From assembly GCA_049430945.1 (NCBI GenBank), contig JBMTCO010000005.1:1001-65000 (forward strand): a stretch of DNA of 64,000 nt. The letters run 5' to 3'. A program made the position numbers and the translations under genes. How positions within the stretch are numbered: the first letter of the stretch is position 1; each line of letters begins with the position of its first letter. Of this stretch, positions 24,069 through 39,452 are shown piece after piece. A model generated the notes under the pieces. The model made no database searches, was not told where the DNA came from, and saw only the letters and a program-made list of their open reading frames with translations. This DNA comes from Cyclobacteriaceae bacterium. GTDB lineage: Bacteria > Bacteroidota > Bacteroidia > Cytophagales > Cyclobacteriaceae.

Positions 24069-24947
24069 TTACTCTTTTGTGATTGGTACAGTAATTCTGA
24101 ATTCATGAGAAGCGCCAAATGAATTGGCAGCTCCCCATCCCGTTTCCCAGCAATAGCCAATTTCAATTTTACCGGCAGCTTTGAAGCCGGAATAGAGCGA
24201 CGCTCCGATACCCTGGTTATAAGCGGCACCGATAAAGAACCACTCATTGAATGTAAAATTTGAACCTACCTCCCAATTTCCGCGCAAATCTTTAACCGTA
24301 CGAAAAATAAATCTTGGTGTGACCTTAAGTTTAAGATTCCCGGACTCAAAAGAATAAAACAATGAGTACCACTGATTATAAAATGCCGAAGGCCTGGAAC
24401 GGTTCAATAACTGATTCAAATCTTCATCACCAGGAAGGAGGTCAGGCAGAGAAAAACCCACCTGCAGATTTCTGAATTCAAATGCTATCCCTGCTGCACC
24501 GGAAGGTTCGGTGCGTCCTTCGGCAGCACGGATAATGGCAGGATCATTTCCGTAGTCAACGCCATTCAAATTAAGTCTTTCTGAAACAAACCCACCGGAA
24601 AGTCCAAGCCGTAGTTTTACTTCCTTACTGAGCGGCACAACATAAGCGATTGCAAACCGGCTGTCCACATTTGTGAGATTCACTGATTCCTGCCCGATTA
24701 TGCTTACACCAAAGTTTACTCGTTTTTTTCCTGAGTGCTGAAATAAAAAACCTGTGGCAACAGGTCCATTGTTAAAGCTAATCCATTGCCGGCGGTGGAT
24801 CAGACTTACATCAAATGCATTGTTGATGCCTGTGAGCGAAGGGTTATAAATTCCCTGATTGGCGAAAAACTGCCTGAATACAGGACCGTCCTGGCAGAGT
24901 GCACCGAAGCCTGAAATCATGACAAGAATGATCAGCAGCGCTCTCAT
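24069..24947 (-). CDS. PorP/SprF family type IX secretion system membrane protein
   Basis: QFFAN...YNPSLTG, HRRQW, beta-barrel-like pattern, C-terminal SHEF; directly downstream of a type B CTD gene. Confidence 0.85.
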   Translation of the reverse strand: MRALLIILVMISGFGALCQDGPVFRQFFANQGIYNPSLTGINNAFDVSLIHRRQWISFNNGPVATGFLFQHSGKKRVNFGVSIIGQESVNLTNVDSRFAIAYVVPLSKEVKLRLGLSGGFVSERLNLNGVDYGNDPAIIRAAEGRTEPSGAAGIAFEFRNLQVGFSLPDLLPGDEDLNQLLNRSRPSAFYNQWYSLFYSFESGNLKLKVTPRFIFRTVKDLRGNWEVGSNFTFNEWFFIGAAYNQGIGASLYSGFKAAGKIEIGYCWETGWGAANSFGASHEFRITVPITKE

Positions 24948-26221
24948 CGTACAATCCGGACTGCTCCGGTTATTGACTTTCTGTTTTCACAACGGATTTC
25001 ATAGTAATAAGCCTCTTCTTCAAGCTGTCCGCCTCTTAATGATTTCCCGCTCCATGAATTGTCGTATCCGATTTTGTCCAGTACAATAGTTCCAAAACGG
25101 TCATAAATAATAAGGCGGCAATTTTCATATTCGAGCGTGTTCTCCCATTGCCAGAAATCATTTATTCCATCTCCGTTGGGACTGAATACTTCCGGGAAGG
25201 GCACAGGCTGAATGTCACCAGATGCAATTAAAAGACTTCGGCGTCTTGGACTGTTTTCAAGAACGAGTTTCATTCTTTCAACCTGATCGGTGGTGAAAAG
25301 ATTCATACAATCATCGTATGTATAGTCCATGTAGTTCTGGTACATGCGCCCTTGTGGGGTGCAGTCTGCCAGAACACCTGTGGGACAACTTTCAGTAGGC
25401 TCGGACTGTACAGGCGTGTCATCAATAAAGTCTGTGGAGGAGCAGCCCTCGCCGTCACCCCAGGTGTGGCGCAAACCAAAAAAGTGCCCCATTTCGTGAG
25501 TCAGAATGCGGCCTTCATTGTATCGGTTATCCAGATTAAATGGACCATCATTCACAGAGCCAAAACTGGCGTAACTTACAATGATGCCATCTGTCATTCT
25601 GCTGTAAGCTTCCCCGGAGGCTGAAAGCCCCTGCAATGTGGATATTGGAAATTGCGTAAAGCCAAAATAATCGGTTAGATTACAAACCCAGATATTAAGG
25701 TAATTTTCAGAAGGCCAGAAACTCAGTGATTTTGCATCGTCATTTTCGGACCGCGAATAACCTGAAAGATTCCCCTTTACCCTTACTATTCCTGAGGTAG
25801 ATTTTCCTGATGGATCAACAGAAGCCAGCACAAAACTGATGTTCATAGATCCTGCGGACTGGCTAAAAGAAGCAGGAGTTCTTACTGCATCATCGTTCAG
25901 TCTCTGAAAGTCATTGTTCAGTACTTTAATTTGAGACATCACCTGCGCATCTGAAATATTGGTTCCCGTTCCTACCGGCTCGCCTTTATGGATGATATGA
26001 ACCACAACAGGAATCGTATAGAAGTTTGCCTGAATGGAAGATTTTCTTGAAGATTTCAAACCGGTTAGCCAGGATTCAAACGTTTCTTCGGATTCGGTAA
26101 TAATCCCTTTTTTATAAAGGTCCCGGTTATGTTCCACTGTACCGCACCTGACTTGTCCCATAGCACCCGACCACTCAGTCAGTGCTATGAAAAAGATACA
26201 CGCGCGTGAAAAGGTAATCAT
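24944..26221 (-). CDS. M43 (pappalysin/ulilysin-like) Zn metalloprotease with T9SS type B C-terminal domain
   Basis: IPVVVHIIH, HEMGHFFGLRHTWG, QNYMDY, and FSPNGDGINDFW...YDRFG...W.G gliding-motility CTD. ATG 26221 chosen because the ORF-track TTG lies in a -7 box. Confidence 0.9.
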   Translation of the reverse strand: MITFSRACIFFIALTEWSGAMGQVRCGTVEHNRDLYKKGIITESEETFESWLTGLKSSRKSSIQANFYTIPVVVHIIHKGEPVGTGTNISDAQVMSQIKVLNNDFQRLNDDAVRTPASFSQSAGSMNISFVLASVDPSGKSTSGIVRVKGNLSGYSRSENDDAKSLSFWPSENYLNIWVCNLTDYFGFTQFPISTLQGLSASGEAYSRMTDGIIVSYASFGSVNDGPFNLDNRYNEGRILTHEMGHFFGLRHTWGDGEGCSSTDFIDDTPVQSEPTESCPTGVLADCTPQGRMYQNYMDYTYDDCMNLFTTDQVERMKLVLENSPRRRSLLIASGDIQPVPFPEVFSPNGDGINDFWQWENTLEYENCRLIIYDRFGTIVLDKIGYDNSWSGKSLRGGQLEEEAYYYEIRCENRKSITGAVRIVR

Positions 26222-26239
26222 TCCAATCCTATGGGACTT

Positions 26240-26247
26240 CAAAGATA
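26240..26247 (-). promoter_or_regulatory. -7 promoter box TATCTTTG (M43 protease-porP)
   Basis: CAAAGATA on the + strand; perfect consensus. Confidence 0.6.
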
Positions 26248-26288: not shown

Positions 26289-26828
26289 TCATTTTTTACA
26301 AATGAGTTTTTTGCTCACTGCCCAGTCAAAAAGTTTATCCTGCAGTGCATCAGCATCTTTACGAGCCACCACTTCATAATCATTATTGTAATAACCCTTC
26401 TGTTCAGTCTGGGTGGTGTATAACTTGTTTGACTGTCTGTTGCGAAGGTCAAGTGAATGTCGGATTTCATGAATCAGAGTATTGAGTAACTCCTTTAAAT
26501 TATTTTCATGGTTAGGATGACGCCAGTATAAAATCACAGTTCTGGTGATCGGATTAAAAGTCCCCATGACATTACCTAGATTTTTCCTTTTATAGCTTAT
26601 TAAAATGCAAGGTCGCCGGTAACTTCCGGTAATTTTATATTGAGACAGAATCCAGTCTGTGCAGTATTCAACAAATTTTTTATTTGAAATGGTAGGGTTG
26701 ATGACCCATATATCTGGTTCTGACTCAAAAATTTGAAACAGGAAATAAATAATTACGGCTACCAGGATGAGGTATGCCCATGCCTCAGTAGTGCCCCGTT
26801 CAAGCTCTTGTAGAAGTGTTTCAACCAT
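26289..26828 (-). CDS. Hypothetical membrane-anchored zincin-like metallopeptidase
   Basis: One TM helix (AWAYLILVAVIIYFLFQIF), HEIRH, and a downstream NDYEVVAR glutamate motif. Confidence 0.7.
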   Translation of the reverse strand: MVETLLQELERGTTEAWAYLILVAVIIYFLFQIFESEPDIWVINPTISNKKFVEYCTDWILSQYKITGSYRRPCILISYKRKNLGNVMGTFNPITRTVILYWRHPNHENNLKELLNTLIHEIRHSLDLRNRQSNKLYTTQTEQKGYYNNDYEVVARKDADALQDKLFDWAVSKKLICKK

Positions 26829-26877: not shown

Positions 26878-27867
26878 TCAGACGTTATAGTATTTTTTCA
26901 TTTTTTCCACGTGAGCCTTTACGGAGGTAATTAATTCAGGCGGCTCCAGTACTTTTATCCTGCTGCCGAGGCCAAGAAGGGAAATGGTCAGTTCTTCAGA
27001 AAGGTAAACATCCAGCTGAATCACGGCACCTTTTTCATCCTCATCCATGATGCGCTGAGTTGCGTGCAGTGGTTGGATTTTGAGGAAATAAACAGAATCA
27101 GTGCTTACCCAGAAACGAACACAGCTGGGTTTACCTGATTGCAGCGTTGTAATTCCGATGCTATGTTTAAAATATCTGTTCAGATTAAAAGTAGGATCCC
27201 GGTAAAAGGAAACCCCTGCCACATCACGAACTGTCTTGATCCTGTCCAGTGCAAGATTTATGGTAAAATCCTTTTCTGCCGAATATCCGATCACATACCA
27301 TAGGCCTCTGTATTCCTTAAGTGCGTAAGGAGAGAAATAATGCTTGACTACTTTTTTCTGACGCATTGAGCGGTGTTCGATGATGATGCATTTTTCTTCC
27401 AGAATGGCTTCATGCAGCGGCTCCAGAAATTCAACGCCTTGCACCTGAAGATTTGATTCGCTGATAATGGCCGATCCCTCCTTTTTACGCTCAGTAACCT
27501 TTCTGAAAATTTTATTCAATACTGACTGTGCTTCCCTGATGAGCGCGATGTGGCTGTTACCATTCAACACGTTGATTGCAAAATCCAGGGCTTTGATTTC
27601 AGCTTTTTCGAGTTCATTGGTAAAAATTCTGTAATTCTCCTCCTCATAGTAATAACCCCTTTTTCGGGAACAGATGATGGGCGCCTTGAATTCTTGTTTC
27701 AAAAATCTGATGTCACCATCGAGCGTCTCAATTGCCACTGCGGTGCCACCGTGGGCCTCTAGTTTTAAATTAAGTTCATCAAGCAAATGCTGTCTTTCAA
27801 TGTTACCCTGTGCAATCAATTCATCAAGGATTCGGTATCGGAGATATGCATTTTTATTAATTGGCAT
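26878..27867 (-). CDS. HTH-WYL(-WCX) domain transcriptional regulator
   Basis: MPINKNAYLRYRILD N-terminus, wHTH (TLDGDIRFLK), SPYALKEYRGLWYVIG, ALDRI, and C-terminal LQPLH..Q...LGSRIKVLEP. Confidence 0.92.
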   Translation of the reverse strand: MPINKNAYLRYRILDELIAQGNIERQHLLDELNLKLEAHGGTAVAIETLDGDIRFLKQEFKAPIICSRKRGYYYEEENYRIFTNELEKAEIKALDFAINVLNGNSHIALIREAQSVLNKIFRKVTERKKEGSAIISESNLQVQGVEFLEPLHEAILEEKCIIIEHRSMRQKKVVKHYFSPYALKEYRGLWYVIGYSAEKDFTINLALDRIKTVRDVAGVSFYRDPTFNLNRYFKHSIGITTLQSGKPSCVRFWVSTDSVYFLKIQPLHATQRIMDEDEKGAVIQLDVYLSEELTISLLGLGSRIKVLEPPELITSVKAHVEKMKKYYNV

Positions 27868-27933: not shown

Positions 27934-29991
27934 TCAGGCTGCTTTAATTCTTGTTTCCTGTTTCGGGAATTTTGCAGTCACAACTGACTGACCCTTTAGT
28001 GCTGACTTAAGCGCTGACCTGTAAAAATTGCTGCGGGGATTTTCCGATAATGCTTCCGGATCAATTCCTGAACCATACTCCAGGGCCATTTCTCTGAGCA
28101 TAGCACTTTCAATTACCGGATGATCAGATAAATACCCGGAGAGGTGCAGCAACCATTTTTTTTGTGACTGAAGGTATGCTTTAGCGGATTCATAGGCCTC
28201 CTGCAGCCAGGTCGCTGCAATATTCCGTTGTTGTTCGGTGGGCGGAAGGCCGGCATTTGCATGACTCATAGGAAACTCAAAAAATCCGGGCACCTCACCC
28301 ATACCGGACTCAAGCAACATTTCATTAACAAGCCTGGTGGCATTCCGCAAATCGGATCCGGCTCCAAGCGTAATATTTTCCTTCCCGAAAATAATTTCTT
28401 CTGCTGCCAGGCCGCCCATCAATGCAATCAGTCTTAGTTTAAGTTCTCTGAATGAAAGACATCGCTCTGGGTTTTCGTTCCTGGTGAATCCTGCCATATG
28501 TATTTCCGATGTAACAGAATGCACACTTACCGGCACACGATACATCATTCCGATTGAAATTACAGCATGACCGGATTCATGGACTGCTGTAACCGTCTGA
28601 AGCTCATCTTTCCTCGGTTTGCGGAGTTTGTGTACAGATAAACCTAATTCCTCCTCCATCCTGACCATTCTACCTTTTTTACTGCGGAAGTTTTTTACCA
28701 AATGCGTTCCGGTCCAGCTCAGCTCCACAATAGTTAAATCCAGTCCAAGACGGAACCGTTCCACCATAATTTTTCCTGCCTGTGATCCGATGAGTTCATG
28801 GATGGTGGTGAACAGCGGACGAACGCCCTGCGTGGGAAATACGCCTTCACTGAATATCAATTGATGGATAGAGCTGTCAATTTCAAGTTTTACGCCTTCC
28901 TCAAGTGCGCGATTCGAAATTTTTAACAGTTCTGCACTGATAAGTTTTCTGAAAGACTCCGAACTGAAGGCAGGGTAGATCAAGTGACATGAACCCAGCC
29001 GTGCAATCTGCTCAGGCCTGAAACGGCGTGTAAGGGCAGTTCTGATAGTATTGATGTTTATTTCAAGACTCTGCCGGTGAAAATCATCCGGAGAAATATC
29101 CAGGTTCAGGTCATGACTCATCGGGAAAGCCTCATCCAGGTTGCCCATCACAAAAACCAGTCCTTTGCTGCAATCCATAATCTGCTGACCAAGAGAGTCC
29201 TTATAAGTTTTATGTAGGAACTGCAACAGCTCCGCGCCATTAAGTGTATTGATGTGTTTTTCCAGTTCATAAACTGTCTTAAACTTTCCGAGTGTGATTT
29301 CATAAATCTCTTCAAGACTCCATGCCGGTATGGCTCTTATTGCCTTATTGTCATGATGCTTTTCAAATTCCTCCCTCGGTATAAAAGCATGCTGAAAACG
29401 TTTCAGCACCTCGATGTACAATTCATGACCTTCTGTAACAATACCCTTCTCAATGCCGGCGCCATTGGCAAGGGCCGTGGATAATAAATGAATAAGCTGA
29501 AATACGCTGCTTTGTGCGTAACAATTTAGCGTTGTGACCAGTTGCCCGTTATCAAGAATGTCCCAGACATTTCTGATAAAACCTTTATCAATTTCATCAT
29601 CAGATGAATTAATTGTTCGGGCAAGCTGGAATTCATCAAAGGCTATGACCAGGGGCACTCCATTATGGTGAGGATAGAGGTTTTGTAAACCTTTTTTGAT
29701 GGTGTGCTCTTTGTCGTATGCTTCTCCAAGATCAAATTTGAAATAGCGATTTTCAAATCCGATAAGCCGGACAAACCTTGATACCAGTGATGTTTTCCCT
29801 ACCCCTGTAAGACCCCACAGGTTAACAACCAGGGGCCTGTCCTGTAAGTATGGGAAAAGAAACCATGGAGTGGTCACATCAATGACGCGATCAATAACAG
29901 AGTCGATACCAATGAATTCTGATTTCAGCTGAGCTCTGACAGATTCAAACAACCGGTGTTTTTCCAGAATTTCTTCGCCTTTTATAGTCAT
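27934..29991 (-). CDS. Soluble AAA+ ATPase (ClpB D2-like) fused to M41 (FtsH-type) Zn-peptidase domain
   Basis: Walker A GLTGVGKT, Walker B IAFDE, FRPEQIARLG, GVRPL (sensor 2), then HESGH...GGLAAEEIIFG...GAGSDL. No TM segment. ATG 29991 chosen. Confidence 0.85.
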   Translation of the reverse strand: MTIKGEEILEKHRLFESVRAQLKSEFIGIDSVIDRVIDVTTPWFLFPYLQDRPLVVNLWGLTGVGKTSLVSRFVRLIGFENRYFKFDLGEAYDKEHTIKKGLQNLYPHHNGVPLVIAFDEFQLARTINSSDDEIDKGFIRNVWDILDNGQLVTTLNCYAQSSVFQLIHLLSTALANGAGIEKGIVTEGHELYIEVLKRFQHAFIPREEFEKHHDNKAIRAIPAWSLEEIYEITLGKFKTVYELEKHINTLNGAELLQFLHKTYKDSLGQQIMDCSKGLVFVMGNLDEAFPMSHDLNLDISPDDFHRQSLEININTIRTALTRRFRPEQIARLGSCHLIYPAFSSESFRKLISAELLKISNRALEEGVKLEIDSSIHQLIFSEGVFPTQGVRPLFTTIHELIGSQAGKIMVERFRLGLDLTIVELSWTGTHLVKNFRSKKGRMVRMEEELGLSVHKLRKPRKDELQTVTAVHESGHAVISIGMMYRVPVSVHSVTSEIHMAGFTRNENPERCLSFRELKLRLIALMGGLAAEEIIFGKENITLGAGSDLRNATRLVNEMLLESGMGEVPGFFEFPMSHANAGLPPTEQQRNIAATWLQEAYESAKAYLQSQKKWLLHLSGYLSDHPVIESAMLREMALEYGSGIDPEALSENPRSNFYRSALKSALKGQSVVTAKFPKQETRIKAA

Positions 29992-30017
29992 ATACAGGAT
30001 TTGAGGTAACTGGGATG

Positions 30018-30052
30018 CGAAAATAGGCTGAAGCATTGTAGCCTAATTACAA
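30018..30052 (-). promoter_or_regulatory. Operator TTGTA-GCCTAAT-TACAA (30036-30052) plus -7-like box TATTTTCG (30018-30025)
   Basis: Perfect palindrome exactly 10 nt upstream of the -7-like box, in front of the AAA-M41 gene. Confidence 0.75.
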
Positions 30053-30225: not shown

Positions 30226-30300
30226 GGGAGCTTAGCTCAGCTGGTTCAGAGCATCTGCCTTACAAGCAGAGGGTCGGGGGTTCGAACCCCTCAGCTCCCA
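30226..30300 (+). tRNA. tRNA-Val (anticodon TAC); CCA not encoded
   Basis: Acceptor stem GGGAGCT/AGCTCCC, D-arm AGCTCAGCTGGTTCAGAGC, anticodon arm TCTGC-CTTACAA-GCAGA, T-loop GGTTCGAACCC. Confidence 0.97.
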
Positions 30301-30319
30301 CTCTTATACTTCATTTCAA

Positions 30320-30468: not shown

Positions 30469-33400
30469 CTATGCCAAAGCTTTATCACCGCGAAATAAAG
30501 CATCCATTCCTTCAATAACCTTACGGTCAGGCATTGAGTAGAAAATACCTTCTCTTCTGCCACGGCGCACGCCTCTGACAAATAAATAAATAACTCCTCC
30601 AAACTGACTGTCGTAATCAAACCCGGGAATGCGGCTCTGCAAATATCTCATGGCCGCCAGAGTATATAAATGATACTGCAGATTATAATTATTCTCTGCC
30701 ATGGCCATGTTCAGCTGTTCTTCAGAATAATCTTCAACACGGTCACCGAGGTAGTTTGACTTCCAGTCGAGGATGTAAAACTTGCCTTCCCACTCAAAAA
30801 ATAAATCCATCAGACCATTCATAATTCCTTCCAGTTCGGAGCGGCTGCCCATTCCATCTTCATCTGTCAGCGCGACTTTGAAAGGAGCATGTGCTGGCGC
30901 AAGGCTCTGCAGCTCTGAAACCTGAAATGGTTTCAGATCAAGATCAAATTCAAGTTCAGCCATACGATTTGTACGATCAAGTTCTGAAAGCCTGAAGGTG
31001 CCGTCCGGCAAAAGCTGAGTCTCAAGGATTTCTTTTACCATAATGGTTAATGAAGACTCAAAGGAATCAGAAGCACCGGAATCTGCGGAGTTTCGTACCT
31101 GAAAGCGCTTGACCATTTTACTTACCACCGCATCCCATCCATGCGGAGCTGTGAAGTTGACATTTTCAAAAATGGCATGCAGCATATTTCCTGTTACGGC
31201 TCCTTTACGCAGTCTGCGGAAAACAAAATGGTCGTATGCCGTCATGTCCGTACGCTGACTAACCGGAATAGCAACCGGCGTATGATCCGGCGTCAGCCTC
31301 GTGAAGCTTGCACGCCTCCAGTTTTTCTCCCGGAGTTCAAAAATACCTGCGTTTTTATAAACAGCTGTCTGAACCTGCTCAGGAGCAGCCTGCCCCGCAA
31401 GAAGGTTTGAAGGCGGTGTCCATAAACGGATAAGACTATTTTCAGGGCTTTCCAGTTCAAGCTTGGAAAAGAAGCGTCCAAGGAATTCGGCCCCGGAATT
31501 ATATTTTTTATCAGTGAGAATAAAACATTGTTGTTTGGCCCTGGTCAATGCCACATAAAGAAGTCTCAGATTTTCTCGTTCCTGTTGCAGACGATACAAT
31601 TCCATTTTATCCGGATATCCTTCCAGTGTAATTTTATTTATCGTAACATAATCTCCCTGCTCGGTTTGGAATTCAGCAGTTTTATGTTTTGACTGTGAGA
31701 CAGGTTCAAGCTGAGGACAAATTACAATAGGGTATTCAAGTCCCTTTGATTTATGGATGGTTACAATTTTAACGGCATCTTCGTCGCTTTCAATGCGCTG
31801 GATATATTCATCCCCTTCAGGAGTTTCTCCTTCAGTACCCCGCTGAAGCCATTGCACCTGTTCTGCCATGTCATAGCTTTTTCGTACTGAAATTCTGTGA
31901 ATCAGGTCAACCAGTTGCAGCAAATTGGCAACAGAGCGCTCAGCATTTTTTACTCCGGCTTCGTAAAAACGGCTATGGACCTTATGATCTGCCATAAACT
32001 GCTGGAGCATCACATAAACACCCTTTGATTTCCAGGCTTCCTGATATCTGCGAAACCTGGCAATCAGATCTTCACTGTTTGACCTGCTCAGTTGCTCAAT
32101 TGAGTAACCGGCAATATTTGTCAGCAACGCACGGTTCACTTTACTTACTGTCAGTTCATGAATTCCGGACAGTACATAAAATAATTCCAAAGCCTCAGGT
32201 GATTCAAGTATTCCGCTGTCATCCACTGTAACTGAAGGTATCCGGGCGGCAGCAAGCTGCTTTTTTATTTCTTGGCCTTTTGAATTCGTCCTTACCAGAA
32301 TTCCGATATCTGAGAATTTAATATCATTCGGAACACCATTTTTAAGCAGTTTATATTCTCCGGACCAAACCAAATGACTGACCAGGACAGCCAGCGAATT
32401 AATCCGATGGTCAACCTTAGGGTGTGATGATACAAGAACCGGCGCTATATTTTCTCCGTTTCTGGTAAGAATCGCTTTATCGTTTGGAACAGGTGATTTG
32501 ACCTTCATATACTTAAGGTCATTGCCATATCTGAATGTATCAAAGGGACCTCCCTCCTGTTCAGGCAGAAAAAATTTGTTCATTGCATCAATGAGCCTGG
32601 TATTGGAGCGGAAATTCGTATTCATGTAATGTAATGTGTGAACTTCCGATACAGCTTTGAAGTAAGTACTAAGATCCGCCTTTCTCCAGCCATAGATGGA
32701 TTGCTTTGGATCGCCGATGAAATACAAATAGTGCTCTGCTCCGAAGAGCTCTTTAAAAATCCCGTACTGATCGGCATCTGTATCCTGAAACTCATCAATG
32801 AACACAGCATGAAATCTTTCGCGGAGCCGGTTTCGAAGCTCATCCCTCTGTGTCCCTTCCGTAACAGCCTTTCGGACCTGTATGATCAGGTCATCAAATG
32901 TTTTTGAAAGCCTGCGGTCTTTTTCTTTTCCAATCAGGTCAGCAATTGAAGCCATGGCATCGCCTGCAATTTGCTGACACAGGATTCTAAGGCCTGCCTG
33001 TTGTGCATTACACTTGGCAAGGTAGGCTCTCATTTCATTGACAGCAGGGCCGAACACACACTTGTCTCTGATATAGTTTACTTCCTGTTTCAGACTCAAA
33101 GTTTCTGTTAAAGAATCCCATAATTCTCTTTCAAAGTGAACTTTGAAAGCCTTTGATGCGTTTGTGTTATCCTCAAATAACTGCAGAATCGTCTCTTTGT
33201 GATTTTTACATGCTTGAATAAAAGCATTCTTCAAATCTTCCGTCTCCCTTAAAATCTGTAAAATTCTGTTCTGATGCGTCTGCTCCAAAAAATCCTCAAC
33301 AAGCGCTTCCGGATTAAATGGTTTCTTGCCGGAAAGCCCTGACTTGACCATTTTAAAAATCACGGTTCGCTCCATACTGAAATTTATAGGATCCTCATTG

Positions 33401-33975
33401 GGCCTAATAACTGCATGTTCTCGCAACAAGGCTGTCAAAATATCAGGATGAAGGGTGGCAATTTTACTCCGCCAGTAATCATTCAGGTGGTCATCAATAA
33501 GTATCTGATAATCGTCTTCTGACAACATGCCTGTGCCAAAAGCCTGCATGGTCTCAAACGAGAATTCCTGAAGAACACGCTGGCAAAAACTATGAATGGT
33601 CAGCACAGCAGTCTCGTCCAACAAGGCTACAGCATTTTCAAGCTTTTTAATCACCTCCTCCTGTGAAGTGGCATTTATCCGGGCAGAGATGATGTTCTTA
33701 ATATTTACATCGGCATCTGCCGCATTGAGGTCGCGTGCGATCTCCAGGGCCTGCCTCACAAAAGAGCGCACACGCAATTCAAGTTCTGCCACAGCAGCAC
33801 GCGTGAAAGTCACCATCAGGATCTTATTTACCGGAATATTTTTTTCCAATAGCAAACGCAGCGTAAGGATGGCAATGGAATATGTTTTTCCTGTACCTGC
33901 AGATGCTTCAACCGCCTGTGGTTGTTGGATGACATCAACAGTTACAGCTTCAAAATTTTCATTAATAATGGGCAT
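30469..33975 (-). CDS. recB: Exodeoxyribonuclease V beta subunit (helicase + nuclease)
   Basis: EASAGTGKTYSI, TFTRAAVAEL, DEFQDTD, IGDPKQSIYGWR, TIHKSKGLEY, RLLYVALTRA, and nuclease motifs MDL...ILDWKSN and YNLQYHLY. ATG 33975. Confidence 0.93.
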   Translation of the reverse strand: MPIINENFEAVTVDVIQQPQAVEASAGTGKTYSIAILTLRLLLEKNIPVNKILMVTFTRAAVAELELRVRSFVRQALEIARDLNAADADVNIKNIISARINATSQEEVIKKLENAVALLDETAVLTIHSFCQRVLQEFSFETMQAFGTGMLSEDDYQILIDDHLNDYWRSKIATLHPDILTALLREHAVIRPNEDPINFSMERTVIFKMVKSGLSGKKPFNPEALVEDFLEQTHQNRILQILRETEDLKNAFIQACKNHKETILQLFEDNTNASKAFKVHFERELWDSLTETLSLKQEVNYIRDKCVFGPAVNEMRAYLAKCNAQQAGLRILCQQIAGDAMASIADLIGKEKDRRLSKTFDDLIIQVRKAVTEGTQRDELRNRLRERFHAVFIDEFQDTDADQYGIFKELFGAEHYLYFIGDPKQSIYGWRKADLSTYFKAVSEVHTLHYMNTNFRSNTRLIDAMNKFFLPEQEGGPFDTFRYGNDLKYMKVKSPVPNDKAILTRNGENIAPVLVSSHPKVDHRINSLAVLVSHLVWSGEYKLLKNGVPNDIKFSDIGILVRTNSKGQEIKKQLAAARIPSVTVDDSGILESPEALELFYVLSGIHELTVSKVNRALLTNIAGYSIEQLSRSNSEDLIARFRRYQEAWKSKGVYVMLQQFMADHKVHSRFYEAGVKNAERSVANLLQLVDLIHRISVRKSYDMAEQVQWLQRGTEGETPEGDEYIQRIESDEDAVKIVTIHKSKGLEYPIVICPQLEPVSQSKHKTAEFQTEQGDYVTINKITLEGYPDKMELYRLQQERENLRLLYVALTRAKQQCFILTDKKYNSGAEFLGRFFSKLELESPENSLIRLWTPPSNLLAGQAAPEQVQTAVYKNAGIFELREKNWRRASFTRLTPDHTPVAIPVSQRTDMTAYDHFVFRRLRKGAVTGNMLHAIFENVNFTAPHGWDAVVSKMVKRFQVRNSADSGASDSFESSLTIMVKEILETQLLPDGTFRLSELDRTNRMAELEFDLDLKPFQVSELQSLAPAHAPFKVALTDEDGMGSRSELEGIMNGLMDLFFEWEGKFYILDWKSNYLGDRVEDYSEEQLNMAMAENNYNLQYHLYTLAAMRYLQSRIPGFDYDSQFGGVIYLFVRGVRRGRREGIFYSMPDRKVIEGMDALFRGDKALA

Positions 33976-33979
33976 AGAC

Positions 33980-36900
33980 TTATTTAATTGTACCGGGGAA
34001 AAATTCATTTATTAACCGGGTCATTTCCTGAGTATTTTCTTTAAGTATTTCAAAAGTATCTTCTGAAACAAAATCCTGTTCACAGGCTTTCAGGAAATAA
34101 TCATCTCTTAAGGGGTGTGAATCTGCAGAGCGGGCTTTTTCAATCTCTTCAAGCAAATCGGACAATTCCTTACCATTTTTAAATTTACCTATCAGTCCAT
34201 GGAAGAAGTAGAAAAAATTATTTAATCCACCCTTATAATATTCAATGAGCTTTTGCAATTTCTCCTTCGCTCCTTCAGGAGAAATTTTTTCAGGACCACA
34301 AACACTTGCTTCTCCTTTATAATTAATAAATACAAACTCAACGGGTAAACCTGAAGCTACAAGGCCCAGGTAATAAACAATACCACTGAGCATGTGCTTA
34401 TGAGCTGACTTTGAAAAAGTCCACCTCACCATTCGGAGCTTATTTCCGGAATTCAGAATGTCAGCAACCTGACCTTTCAACTGAATGGTTTCATAATCCA
34501 CCTTCACATTCTGCGGACCGGACTCCCATCCATCCGTCCACATTTTTATTTCATAGCGCAAAGGTTCAAGTTCTGCTCTTAAAATACGGGCAGTTGCCTT
34601 GCCGAGATTATGAAGCGGCAGTTTACCGTTATCAGATTGCATTTTGACAATCGCGTCGAAATCACTGTCCTGCATCCGAATCAGCTTATCTGACAATTCC
34701 CGTTCGTCAAAAAATTCAAGCTCAAAGGGTTCATGATCCTTAAGAATCACTTCATCTTCTCTGTACCAGATATCAAAAAACTTAGTGAGAAATGTTTTGG
34801 GAGGGTTTTCGAGGAAATGAGCAATTTCCTGAATGCCTACAATTGCAGAATCAGTCAAAGGAGACTTCCTTGTTTCTCCGATTCTTATATCGATGCGCGA
34901 ACGAAAGCGATCCGGTGACAGATAACTGGTGAGGCCGTGAGGACCATAACGTTTACTAAAACCATGAAGCGGATGAATCGTAACCCAGTCGGCAGTCAGT
35001 TTATCAGGATTTTTCTTTTGAGCTCTTGCTACAAACCCAATCAGTTCATCAACCAGAATACTGGGTGGTAGCACAGCCCCATCTTTCTCACTTCGTGCCT
35101 GGAAGCTGATGTAAAGTTTTTCCTGCGCTGATAATACGGTTTCAAGGAATAAGTGCTTGTCGTTGGCCTTAACGTTCCGGTCTCCTTTTTTATGTTTAGA
35201 AAGCAAACTGAAATTCACCGGTGTTTCCTTGCGTGGAAAGGCTTCAAAGTTCATTCCGAGCATGGCCACAACACGAAACGGAATACTGCGCATAGGAAGC
35301 AGCGAGCAGAATGTTATTCCCTTCGCTGCAAACTGGGTACTGCGTCGTTCCACAGAAAGCTTACTGAGGAAACTGGTTCTGAAAACATCAAAAGGAATGG
35401 CAACCTGCGCGGCTTCCTTCATATCAGTGAGCTGCTCAATCAGACTGATAAACCTTGGATAGTCCTCATCATCCCTTTCGCCTGCCTGAAATACCATATC
35501 CTCAAGTAATTCCTTCAGGTAATCTGCCCAGCCTGCAAGTGTTCTTGGCGTGGCACGCATCTCAATTTTATCACGAAGGACTCGTAAAAAATAAGCAAGT
35601 CTGATGCGATCCAGTCCTCCGGCTCCTTCTTCCGTATCAAGAACAGGAACCAAATCAACGCCATCGGAATAGGATGCATCTCCTTCGGGCTGCATGCACA
35701 ACCCATAAATCATCTTTTTAAGGCCGGTGGTCCAGCTGATTTTGCGGCTGTCGTCATCGTTCGTTCCATCAAGGCCGAAAAAAACTGTAGCCTGCCTGAT
35801 GGCATTTCTGATTTCATCCAGATCATCAAACTGAAATCTGCGCCTGATGTATGGAAAATCCAGCATTCCCATGATTTCTTCTGCCTTAAAGCGCAGACCA
35901 TCGAATTCAAGGAGTGCCTTCAGAGCAGCGAAAAGATTATTTTCTGATGCAATCAGTTCATCAGCTATTGAATATCGGAATCGGTTAGCAGAGTTGCCGA
36001 AAACTGCATGTATATATGGTGCATACAAGTCAATGTCAGGCACCATCACCAGAAAATCGCGTGCAGAATAGTCTGATCCTTCTTTGTCAACCAGTGAAAC
36101 AAAATAATTGTACAGCACCTCTACTTCACGAGGAGGAGTATAGCAGCCGTTAATTATTACCGAACCATCCTTATGATCCTGCGCACCAATGGCAATTTCA
36201 TTTCCTTCCTGAAGGTCCCGGAAGGTCATATTTTTATATATGCCGTAATGAAGGCGGGCAAGAAGGTTAGTCGGATTTTCAGGCGCTACGGCCAGACTGT
36301 CATCATAGCGGTTAATCAGTTCATCATCCTGAAACAATAACCAGAAAGATTCCTTGATGATACCACCCCAGTTGAGCAGCAGATCATTTCCATGAGGTTC
36401 ATTTCCTTCAAAGAGCGGGTTTACATATTTCCCGGTAAATCGTGCAAGCTGCTTTTCTGAAAAGTAATCCAGCCAGTAAACCTCAGGCGCAGGATTAAGC
36501 AGAAACATATGGATGTCAACAAATCCGGAAAGGGCTTTAAAAATTTTCTGGAAAAATGGGGTGACTACGGCAATTCCAAAAATGTACAGGTGGGGCATCT
36601 TTTCAAGAATGCGCTCACGCACTTCAGGCTCATTTAATTTGCTGATGATCAGTCCGGCAATCTGGGTTCTGTCCTTTGCGTTGTCTCCGAAACTGTCCCG
36701 TAACTTCCTCCAGAGATATGGTTGCCAGTCTTCTGAGTTCTCAATTTCTTGGTCAGTAAGATTATTCCAGTCGGTGATGTCGTCTGAACGGTAGATCTGG
36801 TACTGATCAAACAAATCGGCAACTTTCTGCGCAAGGGTCGCCATTCGGATCACATCCCGGTCATAGTAAGACGCAACCTCAGGAAATTTTTCACGGAACG

Positions 36901-37213
36901 CCGGTGAGTCCAGAATTGAATACACTACCCAGCAGATCTCTTCTTTTGAAAATGAATCCTGTCGCTGATTAATACCTGCCGCGATCCACTCAAGTCGACT
37001 TACCACATCAGCAGGCTGGACAAATTGAATGTTGGATGCGATTCCGGTCTGAGCGGCGATGGTATTTTTGAGCCAACTGCTCATGCCGTCAGTCTGAGTA
37101 ATCACAAGCTGTGATCTCATCACACCAAGACCGTGGCTATGGGCGGCCATATCGGTACAAAGACGGCCGGCAAGCCTCTTCAGGTCATTTGAAACATGCA
37201 GTAAAAATGGCAT
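33980..37213 (-). CDS. recC: Exodeoxyribonuclease V gamma subunit
   Basis: LHVSNDL, ADLFDQYQIYR, LLNP...YW, CYTPPREVEVL, VMVPDIDLYAPYIHAVF, FCSLLPMRSIPFRVV, HPLHGFS. Confidence 0.93.
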   Translation of the reverse strand: MPFLLHVSNDLKRLAGRLCTDMAAHSHGLGVMRSQLVITQTDGMSSWLKNTIAAQTGIASNIQFVQPADVVSRLEWIAAGINQRQDSFSKEEICWVVYSILDSPAFREKFPEVASYYDRDVIRMATLAQKVADLFDQYQIYRSDDITDWNNLTDQEIENSEDWQPYLWRKLRDSFGDNAKDRTQIAGLIISKLNEPEVRERILEKMPHLYIFGIAVVTPFFQKIFKALSGFVDIHMFLLNPAPEVYWLDYFSEKQLARFTGKYVNPLFEGNEPHGNDLLLNWGGIIKESFWLLFQDDELINRYDDSLAVAPENPTNLLARLHYGIYKNMTFRDLQEGNEIAIGAQDHKDGSVIINGCYTPPREVEVLYNYFVSLVDKEGSDYSARDFLVMVPDIDLYAPYIHAVFGNSANRFRYSIADELIASENNLFAALKALLEFDGLRFKAEEIMGMLDFPYIRRRFQFDDLDEIRNAIRQATVFFGLDGTNDDDSRKISWTTGLKKMIYGLCMQPEGDASYSDGVDLVPVLDTEEGAGGLDRIRLAYFLRVLRDKIEMRATPRTLAGWADYLKELLEDMVFQAGERDDEDYPRFISLIEQLTDMKEAAQVAIPFDVFRTSFLSKLSVERRSTQFAAKGITFCSLLPMRSIPFRVVAMLGMNFEAFPRKETPVNFSLLSKHKKGDRNVKANDKHLFLETVLSAQEKLYISFQARSEKDGAVLPPSILVDELIGFVARAQKKNPDKLTADWVTIHPLHGFSKRYGPHGLTSYLSPDRFRSRIDIRIGETRKSPLTDSAIVGIQEIAHFLENPPKTFLTKFFDIWYREDEVILKDHEPFELEFFDERELSDKLIRMQDSDFDAIVKMQSDNGKLPLHNLGKATARILRAELEPLRYEIKMWTDGWESGPQNVKVDYETIQLKGQVADILNSGNKLRMVRWTFSKSAHKHMLSGIVYYLGLVASGLPVEFVFINYKGEASVCGPEKISPEGAKEKLQKLIEYYKGGLNNFFYFFHGLIGKFKNGKELSDLLEEIEKARSADSHPLRDDYFLKACEQDFVSEDTFEILKENTQEMTRLINEFFPGTIK

Positions 37214-37225
37214 TGATTATTTTTT

Positions 37226-39073
37226 TCAGTTAGGAATGGAGGGACGGCTAAGTTTCTCGCTGACTCCGGAAGCTCTGGTGACCTGGCGACCGACGCAGGC
37301 TATGATCTGGTCTTTGGTTCCAGAAATGATCACGGACTGTTTGGCGCGGGTGATAGCCGTATATAATAGTTCACGGGTAAGAAGCCTGTGTCCGGGTTCC
37401 TTCGGAAGAAAAATCATAACGGAATCAAACTCACTTCCCTGACTCTTGTGGATGGTCATGGCATAGGTTGTTTCTGTATGACTGAGGTACGCCGGAAGAA
37501 CCGACCGCAATACGGGTTTGCCATGCTCATCCAAGATTCCTGAATCAAACCAAACCCGTAATGTGCCCTCAGCATCTTCTCGAACAATGCCGACATCGCC
37601 ATTCACAAGTCCCAGCTCGCTGTTATTTCTTGTGATCAATACAGGGCGGTGTTTATACCAGACAGTTCCCGTATTAATGAGCTTTTTACTTTGCAGGTAT
37701 TGCTCAATGCGCTTATTCAGTTCATAAAGACCGAATTTACCCTCCCGTACAGCTGTGAGAATGCGAATGGAGTTCAGTTTTTTCAAAGCTTCGGATTTGT
37801 CGTCTTCTTTTATGAAGGCCTCATATCCGGAAGCAAATTGCTTCAGAAGTTCTTCGTCATATTCAACATCAAAAAGTAACTGCGGAGATTTTTTATCCTG
37901 ATCACGCGTCTTTTGGTACAGGTCTGTCAGTTCACCAAGTGTGTCCGCATCATTATGAAGGACAGCTTTTGCAACATTTCCGATCAGACCCAGCGCATTA
38001 AACCGGTGGCTGTACTTAAGTTCAGTGATGAATCCGGAGAGAAGACCCGCGTTTGGAACAGGAACAGGCTGCCCGGGAATGCAGCGTGATTCATCGGTTA
38101 TAAAACGGTTAAACCAATTCTGATCGGAAAAGGAGAAGGCATTAAGTGTTCCTGCAGAACGGCAAAGATCTCCCAGCATACTTCCTGCTTCTACAGATGC
38201 GAGCTGGTTCTGATCGCCAAGTAATATTAATCGTCCATGCTCAGGCAAGGCATCCATCAGTTTACTCATCATTGGCATATCTGTCATACTTGACTCATCT
38301 ACAACGATCAGGTCATAAGGAAGTGGATTTGATTTATTGTGCTTGAAGTGAACCGTGCCTCTTTTATAGCCAAGCAGGCTGTGTATGGTCAGCGCCGGAA
38401 TTTCCTGTATCCACTTCCTGATGTTTTCAGGTTCGTTAGCCACTGATTTACGAAGCGATTCAATCATACGCATGGCGGCCTTACCTGTCGGGGCAGTGAG
38501 GTGAACAATTTTATCCGGATATATGCGATGAAAAATTTTCAGAATTTTTGCCAAAGTGGTTGTCTTGCCTGTACCGGGACCACCGGTAAGAATTGAAAAA
38601 TCTGACAACAGACAACGCATGGCACCAACCAGCTGCCAGTCAACCGCCTCAGGCGTACCTGTAATTCCCGGAGTAAGTTCCGGAAATGATGTTCCGAGGG
38701 ACTTTATAAAATCTAAATTTCTAAGCAGCAATTCTTCACGCTCAGCACGTAATGATGAACTTTTGACAACCGCTGCTTTTATTTTATTAATGACGTTAGC
38801 CTCATACCTGAAATAACGGTGCAGGTATAACTTTCCATTGGTCAGTATAAAGGGTTTGATGTCTGTTTCCTCCGTTCCAACCCAGGTTGAAAGCTTGGAC
38901 CAATCAGGTAATTCTGTCAGATTATAAGGGGGCTGATTAAGCGTTTCTTCCGGATTGATACAGATATGTCCTTCCAGTAAGCGTTCGCTTAACAGATAAG
39001 CAAAAGGTCTGATCCGCAGATCAGGGAAAAACTCAGCAAACTGGCGATGTACATCGTTGGTAATAACAGTCAT
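37226..39073 (-). CDS. recD: Exodeoxyribonuclease V alpha subunit
   Basis: GHICI, LYLHRY, VDWQ, GGPGTGKTT, APTGKAA, VVDESSM, LGDQNQLASVEAG, NGDVG, YAMTIHKSQGSEF, RELLYTAITRA. Confidence 0.95.
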   Translation of the reverse strand: MTVITNDVHRQFAEFFPDLRIRPFAYLLSERLLEGHICINPEETLNQPPYNLTELPDWSKLSTWVGTEETDIKPFILTNGKLYLHRYFRYEANVINKIKAAVVKSSSLRAEREELLLRNLDFIKSLGTSFPELTPGITGTPEAVDWQLVGAMRCLLSDFSILTGGPGTGKTTTLAKILKIFHRIYPDKIVHLTAPTGKAAMRMIESLRKSVANEPENIRKWIQEIPALTIHSLLGYKRGTVHFKHNKSNPLPYDLIVVDESSMTDMPMMSKLMDALPEHGRLILLGDQNQLASVEAGSMLGDLCRSAGTLNAFSFSDQNWFNRFITDESRCIPGQPVPVPNAGLLSGFITELKYSHRFNALGLIGNVAKAVLHNDADTLGELTDLYQKTRDQDKKSPQLLFDVEYDEELLKQFASGYEAFIKEDDKSEALKKLNSIRILTAVREGKFGLYELNKRIEQYLQSKKLINTGTVWYKHRPVLITRNNSELGLVNGDVGIVREDAEGTLRVWFDSGILDEHGKPVLRSVLPAYLSHTETTYAMTIHKSQGSEFDSVMIFLPKEPGHRLLTRELLYTAITRAKQSVIISGTKDQIIACVGRQVTRASGVSEKLSRPSIPN

Positions 39074-39161
39074 GCAGCTTTAGTATTTAGAAAAACGACA
39101 GGGGAAGAAAAAGAAGTTAAATTTAATCTAATTCTTTTTTACGGTTTGATTCGGGAAAAGG

Positions 39162-39350
39162 TTAATCAGTTTCAGGATCCTTCTTTTCCTCTACAGGTAT
39201 CTGTTCATCATTCTCTTCACTATTTGACTCCGGATTGACTGAGGAATCGGGGGTAACATACTTATCCAGATTATGGATCAAAAAAGAGTCTGCCTGCTCC
39301 TGACCAAAAAGAGACGCAAAAGACTCAAGAAATTCTTCAGAAAACTTCAT
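39162..39350 (-). CDS. Small acidic hypothetical protein (62 aa)
   Basis: ATG 39350 after an A-rich leader and operator/-7 architecture; 17 D/E versus 4 K and 0 R. Confidence 0.6.
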   Translation of the reverse strand: MKFSEEFLESFASLFGQEQADSFLIHNLDKYVTPDSSVNPESNSEENDEQIPVEEKKDPETD

Positions 39351-39373
39351 AGTTATTTCGTTTAATTTTTCCA

Positions 39374-39408: not shown

Positions 39409-39452
39409 CAAGGAAATTCCATCTATTATTCCTTAACAAGAATTTTCTTTCA

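Follow-up and report, generated by a model that had tools for sequence, protein, structure and literature searches.

A predicted soluble protease joining a Clp D2-type AAA+ module to an FtsH-type M41 peptidase, encoded beside a WYL regulator in a Cyclobacteriaceae bacterium

We found that the window, by which we mean the whole stretch of 64,000 nucleotides analysed here, encodes a protein of 685 amino acids in which an Hsp100/Clp D2-type AAA+ module is followed, in the same chain, by an FtsH-type M41 zinc peptidase. Accounts of ATP-dependent proteolysis in bacteria usually name ClpXP/ClpAP, HslUV, Lon, FtsH and the proteasome; FtsH carries a classic-clade AAA domain together with transmembrane (TM) helices, and Clp ATPases pair in trans with the serine peptidase ClpP. 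To our knowledge, the M41 chamber in those machines is always coupled to a classic AAA ring anchored in the membrane, and the partner of Clp rings is always ClpP. The sequence is best read as a chimeric cytoplasmic metalloprotease that is ATP-dependent and self-contained, a prediction made because the protein is soluble and all of its catalytic residues are invariant. The features discussed below are collected in Table 1.

Table 1. Coordinates (positions in the window) of the fusion protease, its parts and the neighbouring features.
Feature	Position	Strand	Basis or remark
AAA+ (Clp D2-type)/M41 fusion protease CDS, stop codon included	27934..29991	-	ORF, Pfam, AlphaFold
Hsp100/Clp D2-type AAA+ module, residues 1-450	28642..29991	-	invariant columns, own-genome profile, hhalign, Foldseek
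Walker A, G60-T67	29791-29814	-	within the AAA+ module
Further AAA+ sites: Walker B D119/E120, sensor-1 N284, Arg finger R325, sensor-2 R391
Clade-specific insertion, residues ~155-268	29188..29529	-	secondary structure of models
FtsH-type M41 zinc peptidase domain, residues 463-632	28096..28605	-	Pfam, PDB phmmer, invariant residues
HESGH, H471-H475	28567-28581	-	M41 site, with E531 and third ligand D547
C-terminal Lys-Ala-Ala, possible ClpXP/ClpAP-type degron	27937..27945	-	comparative; putative function
WYL/WCX transcription regulator (DriD/PafBC-like), 329 aa	26878..27867	-	Pfam, PADLOC WYL models, PDB
p179, 179 aa, N-terminal hydrophobic segment and HEIRH motif	26289..26828	-	weak zincin-like Pfam matches only
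Palindrome TTGTA-N7-TACAA, likely WYL operator	30036..30052	.	45-61 nt upstream of the protease start codon
tRNA-Val(TAC), between recB and the protease cassette	30226..30301	+	ARAGORN, Rfam; identical in L089
Putatively co-regulated operon	30469..39350	-	palindromes upstream
RecB	30469-34008	-	TIGR00609 recB, 707 bits
RecC	33980-37213	-	Exonuc_V_gamma/RecC_C
RecD-like	37226-39073	-	RecD-type domains
62-aa acidic ORF	39165-39350	-	first in the recDCB operon
Two more palindrome copies	39392-39408 and 39453-39469	.	divergent promoter region, recD-recC-recB operon / Zn-ribbon ORF

The initial annotation had proposed this combination from the letters alone, and both the frame on the minus strand and every motif that it quoted (GLTGVGKT, IAFDE, DILDNG, FRPEQIARLG, GVRPL, HESGH, GGLAAEEIIFG, GAGSDL and the C-terminal RIKAA) were found in the translation. 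The open frame extends from 27934 to 30036 and would give 700 residues if read at its longest. The ATG at 29991 is almost certainly the start, rather than the upstream ATG, because homologs are 685 residues long at 98% coverage, and because the 45 nt between the two codons differ from those of L089, an 87%-identical relative, mostly by non-synonymous changes and overlap with a conserved palindrome. Outside the scope of that annotation lay the WYL partner with its operator, the insertion of ~115 residues in the ATPase and the absence of a GYVG loop.

The domain assignment was checked against Pfam, where both expected families scored above their cut-offs: Peptidase_M41 (PF01434) with an E-value of 8e-20 and 72 bits (cut-off 29.9) over model positions 6-188 of 191, and ClpB_D2-small with 22.7 bits (cut-off 21.9). 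Both were also matched by all 45 aligned relatives, the best ClpB_D2-small E-value being 1.5e-11. Sequence matches in the PDB divide along the same line, with FtsH/YME1 covering residues 476-587 and the D2 rings of ClpE, ClpC1 and ClpB covering 29-117 and 270-445. K66, D119/E120, N284, R325, R391, H471/E472/H475, E531 and D547 are invariant in the 45 relatives, and the AlphaFold model of the whole chain has a pLDDT of 82.4. The protease has no TM segment, as had been claimed: its highest Kyte-Doolittle mean over 19 residues is 1.39, as compared to 2.2-2.7, at two positions each, in the two genuine FtsH paralogs of the same genome.

The ATPase half was placed with Clp D2, as first proposed, by three approaches, none of which grouped it with the FtsH-type AAA. 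A profile of this part, searched against all ORFs of its own genome, picked out the ClpC-like and ClpB proteins at their D2 rings, a Lon-like protein at its Walker A region, and nothing else; the two FtsH paralogs were never met. With hhalign, the probability was 90-91% for the D2 rings of the genome's own ClpB and ClpC and 2.4% for its own FtsH. A Foldseek search of the PDB with the model of residues 1-450 (pLDDT 86.9) returned Hsp100 D2 modules in all of the top 50 places and no FtsH, and target-normalised TM-scores against Hsp100 D2 ranged from 0.63 to 0.74. The general AAA family (PF00004) reached 18.6 bits, under its cut-off of 21.2, and AAA_lid_3 had no Pfam match in the fusion protease; as a control, the canonical FtsH of phage PA5oct gave AAA at 3e-42 (144.6 bits) together with AAA_lid_3 and FtsH_ext. 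Judged by its sequence, the ATPase belongs to the HCLR clade, with a Clp-type Arg finger, a sensor-2 “GxRP” and a D2-small lid; the D2-small subdomain follows sensor-2 and is itself followed by a terminal beta-sheet. Only one set of Walker A and B motifs is present, which indicates a single ring.

Two loops and one insertion set this module apart within its clade. The “GYVG” pore loop of Clp D2 is absent from the alignment of the fusion proteases; strand 2 and helix 2 are joined by a loop that is ~13 residues shorter than in Clp D2 and carries only a semi-conserved aromatic. This short loop (residues 96-99) reads aromatic-x-[I/V]-[K/Q], with an aromatic at position 96 in 94 of 118 members and an aliphatic residue at position 98 in all 118. 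Given these alignment statistics, the idea that pore loop-1 is wholly missing and that the ring cannot thread was dropped; with GYVG lost, the ring may thread weakly, or it may serve instead as a gate or remodeller. The ClpP-docking IG[F/L] loop is not conserved, and the sole “IGF” (residues 79-81) falls in a non-conserved stretch of the alignment. Between the strands at 150-154 and 269-273, where Clp D2 has just a short hairpin ahead of sensor-1, the models show a mostly helical insertion of ~115 residues. It has no homolog in its own genome, is absent from a sister family of ~620-aa proteins and was matched in 13 of 70 viral-contig relatives, and is thus missing from most of them. We infer that this insertion is a candidate substrate- or adaptor-binding module.

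The peptidase half resembles FtsH. It matched YME1/FtsH in the PDB at 1e-10 by phmmer, and its profile found both FtsH paralogs of the genome (E 5e-22 and 1e-20). The M41 site had been described as intact, a description that agrees with the invariant zinc-site residues listed above. The same annotation had ventured, as a weak idea, that the C-terminus resembles an ssrA-like degron, and here the comparison lends some support: an -AA terminus occurs in 10 of the 13 closest relatives (41-100% identity), where the preceding residues vary, and in almost none of the other ~105 relatives, and the tmRNA tags of the own genome end in ...YAMAA. In the window subclade, the conserved Ala-Ala may make the protease a substrate of ClpXP/ClpAP and so limit its lifetime.

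The fusion family comprises ~1,100 clusters at 50% identity. Its distribution is patchy, the gene being found in 9 of 401 genomes of the phylum and 2 of 25 of the genus, so that ~98% of the phylum genomes are without it. Relatives were collected by alignment-based searches of contigs; a scan of contigs started from the single protein mostly met ordinary FtsH genes and yielded L001 as the only true relative. PADLOC, PHROGs and NCBIfam hold no dedicated model for the family, the matches of the protease in PADLOC-DB v2 being at the level of Walker A only (DolB, E 0.022; PDC-M37B, E 0.029), and the literature searched gave no account of a Clp D2/M41 fusion protease family. Related fusion proteins are numerous on large viral contigs in IMG/VR, and the bacterial clade sits nested inside the radiation of viral-contig sequences. 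Among cultured phages in INPHARED we found only the canonical FtsH of PA5oct-like phages, and in BFVD only canonical viral FtsH or Clp, with no fusion in either. A few bacterial copies lie within RtcB-PrfH RNA-repair operons, for example L103 and L115, which are RtcB-PrfH-KptA-TatD operons.

A gene for a WYL regulator of the wHTH-WYL-WCX type starts 66 nt downstream of the protease gene. Pfam recognised WYL (1.4e-11) and WCX (4.4e-7) in its product, and the best PDB matches were chains of 7p5x and 9fnd from M. smegmatis, named “Transcriptional regulator-like protein” (9e-9), which we take to be PafB/PafC; the entry named PafBC, 6sj9, reached an E-value of 0.079 only. Of 17 curated loci, 11 have the regulator beside the protease, as do 54 of 80 metagenome loci; for 20 of the 26 metagenome loci without it, the sequence does not reach 1.3 kb into the upstream flank. 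The WYL gene is missing in ~10% of the loci that can be assessed and in all 70 viral-contig relatives. Protease and WYL regulator are the only gene families that recur broadly across the loci, and the open-access literature searched held no link between WYL regulators and an AAA+/M41 fusion protease. The third gene of the cassette, p179, has copies at the same position in L269 (75% identical) and L270 (59%); it was rejected as a universal third component, being confined to the window subclade and absent from all other loci of the family. The UVR-motif proteins beside WYL in L120-122 and L090, which likewise have 179 residues, are unrelated to it.

The promoter of the cassette contains a palindrome, TTGTA-N7-TACAA, which overlaps the -33 region and occurs at equal spacing in six of six lineages of the window subclade (the window, L089, L118, L269, L270 and L271). 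The -33/-7 elements, of Bacteroidota type, were read by eye; a scan for sigma-70 promoters and terminators gave nothing above chance. The window holds three copies against 0.08 expected; the other two lie ahead of the recDCB operon, with a spacing of -41/-57 to the start codon of its small first ORF. Genome-wide, the 10-base palindrome count of 6 is close to the composition-based expectation of 5.3, so the operator argument rests on clustering at promoters within the window and not on the genomic total. The five perfect intergenic copies all lie in three promoter regions, those of the protease cassette, of recDCB and the Zn-ribbon ORF, and of a PDDEXK_1 nuclease; the sixth (C190) lies inside a coding ORF and was treated as a chance match. 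In the main clade, 27 of 77 loci have a different box, CG[ACT]CA-N5-TGGCG, at -45..-62; across 694 kb it was counted 54 times, where ~4 would be expected. Further operator copies in other loci precede DnaB_C-like, metallophosphoesterase and PDDEXK_4 genes. The core of the DriD box is CGxC-N7-GxCG (PMC10853764); the main-clade box fits this core literally, and that of the window subclade shares its half-site geometry. The WYL protein is the putative binder of these palindromes, judged from where they lie, from how they co-vary with the WYL subfamily, and by analogy. We also considered whether recB belongs to one operon with the protease, which was rejected, as an opposite-strand tRNA-Val gene lies between them. 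RecB was absent from all 25 relatives, hence it offers no empty-site comparison.

Taken as a whole, we lean towards a soluble single-ring Clp D2/M41 protease that acts, under WYL control, when nucleic acid is damaged or foreign DNA is present, an explanation that we hold to be somewhat probable. The protease would form hexamers, as both parent modules do, and ATP hydrolysis and the short pore loop would unfold substrates and pass them to the M41 chamber. On the model of DriD/PafBC, the DriD-like WYL regulator, transcribed together with the protease, would bind ATTGTA-N7-TACAAT at -45/-61. Under its control would stand the protease-WYL-p179 cassette itself, the adjacent recD-recC-recB operon and, at another site in the genome, one PD-(D/E)XK nuclease gene. 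The protease would supply the proteolysis in this non-SOS response.

An alternative reading is an anti-phage role. Here a BrxR/CapW-like WYL regulator would hold a potentially toxic protease off until infection, upon which phage proteins, or host proteins in abortive infection, would be destroyed. Such a role would suit the patchy, accessory spread of the gene, its nesting within the viral-contig radiation and island-like neighbours (PDDEXK_4, DUF2779, GmrSD, the type I RM subunit HsdM and Mrr/Mrr_cat in other loci, together with an integrase, an IS200-like element and an adjoining tRNA); BrxR/CapW-type WYL proteins are repressors of defence systems, and a protease made short-lived by its -AA terminus would suit a toxic effector. 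However, the protease matches no PADLOC model, and the operator geometry, with recDCB and a PD-(D/E)XK nuclease under it, resembles the DNA-damage regulons of DriD/PafBC more than a single defence operon. We regard the anti-phage effector as a serious but rather unlikely alternative. Since RecBCD itself works both in repair and against phages, the defence and damage-response readings can hold together.

The WYL-less members bring RNA repair or ribosome rescue into consideration, with the protease clearing truncated nascent chains, damaged ribosomal proteins or ribotoxins beside the RtcB ligase and PrfH. RtcB2-PrfH has been established as a ribosome repair module that counters toxins (PMC9223846, PMC6514570), RtcB is adjacent in three of six curated WYL-less loci, two of them operons of RtcB, a PrfH-like RF-1, the protease, KptA/Tpt1 and TatD, and viral-contig relatives adjoin genes for Thg1-like tRNA-His guanylyltransferase, ligase and NUDIX proteins, a few of them KptA or RtcB/PrfH. 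But RtcB was seen in a single one of the 80 metagenome loci and in three of the 17 curated ones, the RtcB-linked members form one WYL-less subclade separate from that of the window, the window locus has neither RtcB nor PrfH, and no protease is named among the published RtcB-PrfH accessory genes, all of which leaves this role improbable. We consider it very improbable that the protein is expressed constitutively for housekeeping quality control, standing in as a soluble enzyme for FtsH or Lon and not specially tied to WYL: both parent modules do serve general proteostasis, and the relative L114 adjoins a Lon-like gene, but two FtsH genes are present in this genome beside ClpB, ClpC-like and Lon-like ones, most genomes of the phylum do without the fusion, the neighbourhood is kept only for the WYL regulator, and the protease gene has a putative regulator box at a fixed promoter position. 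The fact that protease and regulator are the sole two conserved partners could also mean that the main substrate is the WYL regulator or another repressor, by a CapP/CapH-like or Lon/LexA-like logic, rather than proteins in bulk; the short pore loop and the extra insertion would suit such a narrow substrate range. Yet the module has no other conserved output gene, so a protease that cleaves its regulator would regulate mainly itself, and the members without WYL, on viral contigs and in RtcB operons, keep the domains of all catalytic residues. This is the least likely of the explanations considered.

The damage- or foreign-DNA-response protease that we favour can be extended into a broader proposal, which we put forward tentatively and hold to be more doubtful than the explanation itself. 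The fusion may represent an unrecognised class of ATP-dependent proteases of bacteria and large phages. In Bacteroidota it would be induced, outside SOS, by DriD-like WYL regulators together with RecBCD and PD-(D/E)XK nucleases, and would strip or destroy proteins that block the processing of damaged or foreign nucleic acid (DNA-protein adducts, stalled complexes, phage RecBCD inhibitors); the bacterial clade would have branched off from a much larger phage-borne radiation and become domesticated. A large conserved family with a Clp D2 ring and an M41 chamber in one soluble chain would indicate that the modules are interchangeable, and would offer a compact model for how motor type and chamber type are matched. 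The linkage with DriD-type WYL proteins and DNA-end processing would add a dedicated protease to damage or defence regulons outside SOS, for which none has so far been described, and the abundance on large viral contigs suggests a role in phage-host conflict.

Compared with known systems, the fusion protease shares with FtsH, YME1 and AFG3L2 a single chain in which the ATPase is N-terminal to an M41 zinc peptidase, with HExxH, the Asp ligand and GGxAAE, and these proteins are the best sequence and whole-chain fold matches for its C-terminal half. FtsH, however, has a strong PF00004 match, AAA_lid_3, no sensor-2 Arg and two TM helices, whereas the fusion protease is Clp D2-type and soluble, and scores 57.5 bits on TIGR01241 against a cut-off of 600. 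With the Hsp100/Clp D2 rings (ClpB NBD2, ClpC/ClpC1, ClpA and Skd3/CLPB) it has the whole D2 module in common, including the helix before Walker A: the strand “FDLGE” corresponds to “IDMSE”, the Arg finger “RFRPEQIxR” to “FRPEFINR”, and sensor-2 “GxRPL” and the D2-small domain with its terminal beta-sheet are present as well. In contrast to these proteins, it is a single ring without N-domain, D1, M-domain, GYVG or a conserved IG[F/L], has the ~115-aa insertion, and carries its protease fused in cis, where Clp has ClpP in trans; the Clp equivalogs TIGR02639 and TIGR03346 gave 33.6 bits against a cut-off of 993 and 28.1 against 1232, respectively.

Lon (LonA/LonB) offers the same soluble, self-compartmentalising design, an HCLR-clade AAA+ fused to its own protease domain, and the Walker A region of the Lon-like protein was the sole non-Clp match of the AAA profile in the genome. 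Lon cuts with a Ser-Lys dyad S16 domain, whereas the fusion carries an M41 zincin, and neither Lon_C (Pfam, NCBIfam) nor LON_substr_bdg (Pfam) matched the fusion. On the regulatory side, no AAA+/M41 fusion protease is reported in the regulon of either DriD (Caulobacter) or PafBC (mycobacteria), both of them WYL activators of non-SOS DNA-damage genes, in which respect the present locus differs from both. The partner regulators, with 300-329 residues (DriD has 327) and WYL and WCX domains, resemble DriD/PafBC and BrxR/CapW, and the palindromic boxes with a 7-nt spacer are like that of DriD. The putatively co-regulated genes encode DNA-end processing enzymes, as in the DriD regulon, which includes recA, recJ and bapE (PMC10853764).

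The initial annotation had described the 685-aa protease as a Clp D2-type AAA+ ring fused to an FtsH-type M41 peptidase, and every motif that it quoted was found in the translation. Pfam searches detected both Peptidase_M41 (residues 463-632, E 8e-20) and ClpB_D2-small (residues 344-402, score above the gathering cut-off), with generic AAA models sub-threshold only. Both domains were matched by all 45 aligned relatives, and the model of Torsin, a Clp-D2 relative, by 15 of them. In searches of PDB sequences, YME1 and FtsH were matched by the C-terminal part (1e-10), and D2 rings of ClpE, ClpC1, and ClpB by two separate stretches of the N-terminal part, residues 29-117 and residues 270-445. NCBIfam gave only partial matches, all far under equivalog cut-offs.

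The class of the ATPase was evaluated in the window's own genome: separate profiles were made from the AAA and M41 parts of the 45-sequence alignment, and every ORF was searched with both. Apart from the D2 rings of the ClpC-like protein and ClpB, the AAA-part profile matched only a Lon-like protein, in its Walker A region; neither of the two FtsH paralogs was matched, while the M41-part profile matched exactly these two. The hhalign probability of the AAA part was 90-91% against the D2 rings of the genome's own ClpB and ClpC, as compared to 2.4% against its own FtsH, and the D2 alignments paired 'RFRPEQIARLG' with 'SVRPEFINRIDE' and 'GVRPL' with 'GARPL'. AlphaFold models were confident (pLDDT 82.4 for the full-length protein, 86.9 for residues 1-450), and the top 50 PDB matches of the AAA-only model were all Hsp100 D2 modules (Skd3/CLPB, ClpB NBD2, ClpC, ClpC1, ClpA; TM normalised to target 0.63-0.74), with no FtsH among them. 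The control, a genuine FtsH from a phage (PA5oct), gave FtsH_ext, a strong PF00004, and AAA_lid_3. Clustering with FtsH-type AAA was looked for and not seen; because the AAA part grouped with Clp D2 in all tests and the control gave FtsH domains, the chimeric architecture stands.

The ATPase and peptidase residues listed in the table are invariant over 45 sequences of 35-79% identity, which bears out the M41 site, with its Asp ligand, that had been called intact-looking. The absence of a TM anchor also held, as no TM helix was found in the protease (maximum hydropathy 1.39 vs 2.2-2.7 in the genome's FtsH proteins). Judged by sequence, this is a conserved, catalytically intact, and soluble Clp-D2/M41 fusion, which would act as a hexameric unfoldase-protease. 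Its open frame extends to a first ATG, 45 nt ahead of the second; since the homologs are 685 aa long (98% coverage), changes in the inter-ATG stretch relative to an 87%-identical relative (L089) are mostly non-synonymous, and a conserved palindrome overlaps this stretch, the second ATG, as originally annotated, is almost certainly the start.

Positions of the features (window coordinates unless another contig or locus is named)
Feature	Position	Remark
Protease gene	27934-29991	- strand; second ATG 29991
Open frame	27934..30036	- strand; 700 aa; first ATG 30036
WYL regulator	26878-27867	divergent 329-aa form in window's subclade
p179, 179-aa TM/HEIRH protein	26289-26828	after regulator in L089, L269, L270
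M43 (pappalysin-type) metallopeptidase with CHU_C type IX secretion domain; PorP/SprF gene	24069-26242	directly downstream of cassette; ordinary Bacteroidota chromosomal genes, establishing the host's phylum
Palindrome at protease promoter	30036-30052	-45/-61 to start
Palindromes 2 and 3	39392-39408, 39453-39469	between divergent 62-aa ORF-recD-recC-recB operon and Zn-ribbon ORF
Region with complete recD-recC-recB operon after 62-aa acidic ORF	30469-39880	operon divergent from Zn-ribbon ORF
Two palindromes, ATTGTA-N7-TACAAT	own-genome contig C12 8084-8172 (L272 5085-5173)	72 nt apart
100-aa ORF and PDDEXK_1 nuclease gene	L272 5181-6320	preceded by C12 palindromes
WYL-less RtcB loci	L103 6756-13229; L115 5192-12381; L110 8884-12452	protease inside operon or divergent from RtcB
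Walker A	G60-K66	invariant
Walker B	D119/E120	invariant
Sensor-1	N284	invariant
Arg finger	R325	invariant
Sensor-2	R391	invariant
M41 peptidase site	H471/E472/H475, E531, D547	invariant; D547 third zinc ligand

Of the 13 relatives nearest in sequence (41-100% identity), 10 have an -AA end preceded by varying residues (KAA, HAA, PAA, TAA); it is present in almost none of the other ~105. The tmRNA tags of the genome end in YAMAA, and the -AA end of the window's subclade is a plausible ClpXP/ClpAP-type degron candidate, through which the protease may limit itself. ARAGORN found two different tmRNA genes (near C86/C87 and C183/C184; tags GENTYAMAA and GETSYAMAA) in this assembly, which is rated 100% complete and 0% contaminated; contamination, the presence of a second strain, or a tmRNA carried by a mobile element could explain this.

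A protease profile run against 1.84 billion cluster representatives matched 1,108 proteins at E<=1e-30; of the best 150, almost all have the full length of 650-720 aa. This is an accessory gene, carried by 2 of 25 genomes in the genus and by 9 of 401 in the phylum, and the window's genome already has two FtsH genes besides ClpB, ClpC-like, and Lon-like ones. In a scan of genome contigs with the single protein as query, the sole true relative (L001 7911-10014, a Prolixibacteraceae MAG) has the gene split into two overlapping frames of 277 aa and 428 aa, a frameshift or assembly error.

Single-ORF D2-small/M41 proteins of 635-780 aa were also found at 70 loci of IMG/VR, mostly on low-GC contigs of 50-500 kb (many 100-500 kb) whose genes are dense and co-directional, with PHROG matches to a virion protein, Dda-like helicase, ligase, Thg1-like enzyme, and NUDIX. 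The fusion genes often lie among the ligase, Thg1-like, NUDIX, and helicase genes, and none of the 70 has a WYL neighbour. In an unrooted tree of 108 sequences (FastTree), the WYL-linked family of bacteria forms one clade (support 99) nested in the radiation of contigs that are viral by their IMG/VR label. A ~620-aa bacterial sister family (L111-L113; AAA_2/ClpB_D2-small and M41), without the ~115-aa insertion or a WYL neighbour, also nests among viral-contig clades. Cultured phages (INPHARED), PHROGs, and BFVD yielded canonical FtsH or Clp only, and no description of the fusion was found in the papers searched.

The protease is linked to a DriD-like WYL regulator. When 17 independent loci were compared, no gene family recurred apart from the protease itself and the WYL/WCX regulator, which is found at 11 of them. 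It is also present at 54 of 80 metagenome loci (34 upstream on the same strand, 12 divergent, 8 downstream), and 20 of the 26 without it have an upstream flank of <1.3 kb. The best PDB matches of the window's regulator are two M. smegmatis chains labelled 'Transcriptional regulator-like protein' (7p5x, 9fnd; E 9e-9), presumably PafB/PafC; the named PafBC entry 6sj9 reached only E 0.079. p179 is a subclade-specific third gene outside the family-wide module, found among family loci only in the window, L089, L269 (protease 79% identical), and L270 (64%, different flank).

In 27 of 77 main-clade loci, CG[ACT]CA-N5-TGGCG lies 45-62 nt ahead of the protease start, overlapping a Bacteroidota -33 TTTG and followed by TAnnTTTG (54 copies in 694 kb vs ~4 expected). 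The box also lies ahead of DnaB_C-like, metallophosphoesterase, PDDEXK_4, PcfJ, and unknown genes. Three tandem paralogous ~200-aa genes of unknown function (L139 189-2590) adjoin one family member; a box of DriD type, CGxCA-N5-TGGCG, precedes each of them, with a spacing of 806 nt. The window's subclade has another palindrome of the same geometry, (A)TTGTA-N7-TACAA(T), at -44/-66 in L089, L118, L269, L270, and L271, with 3 copies in the window vs 0.08 expected.

The whole genome holds six perfect copies, near the composition-based expectation of 5.3, and the regulon argument therefore rests on their placement: one lies inside a coding ORF, and all five intergenic copies lie in promoters of DNA-processing genes, in three regions. 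The protease, recDCB, and the PDDEXK_1 nuclease gene share regulator-type palindromes at fixed positions in their promoters, and the nuclease gene is likely a further member of the same putative regulon. As none of the 25 relatives searched has RecB, the recBCD operon is an accessory element as well, and it is apparently WYL-regulated. An opposite-strand tRNA-Val gene between recBCD and the protease cassette rules out a single transcript; the operon and the cassette plausibly belong to one regulon. The WYL regulator would bind the palindromic boxes, and nucleic-acid damage or infection may induce the cassette. Neighbours of relatives include PDDEXK_4 (11 loci), DUF2779 (12), GmrSD (4), HsdM (3), Mrr_cat, an integrase, and an IS200-like gene. 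The defence-effector and damage-response readings of the protease overlap. RtcB adjoins the protease at three WYL-less loci, two of them operons of RtcB, PrfH-like RF-1, protease, KptA/Tpt1, and TatD; this RNA-repair link concerns a subclade other than the window's, and the published lists that we found of accessories of the RtcB-PrfH ribosome-repair module name no protease.

The main-clade box literally fits the core of the DriD box, CGxC-N7-GxCG (PMC10853764). As compared to Clp D2, the protease has ~115 mostly helical extra residues (~155-268), placed by the models between two strands directly before sensor-1, which have no homolog in the genome and are missing from the ~620-aa sister family and most viral-contig relatives. 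The GYVG loop of Clp D2 is absent, and the strand 2-helix 2 stretch is shorter by ~13 residues; of 118 members, 80% have an aromatic residue at position 96 and all have an aliphatic one at position 98, and the short loop is of the same kind as in classic AAA proteins.
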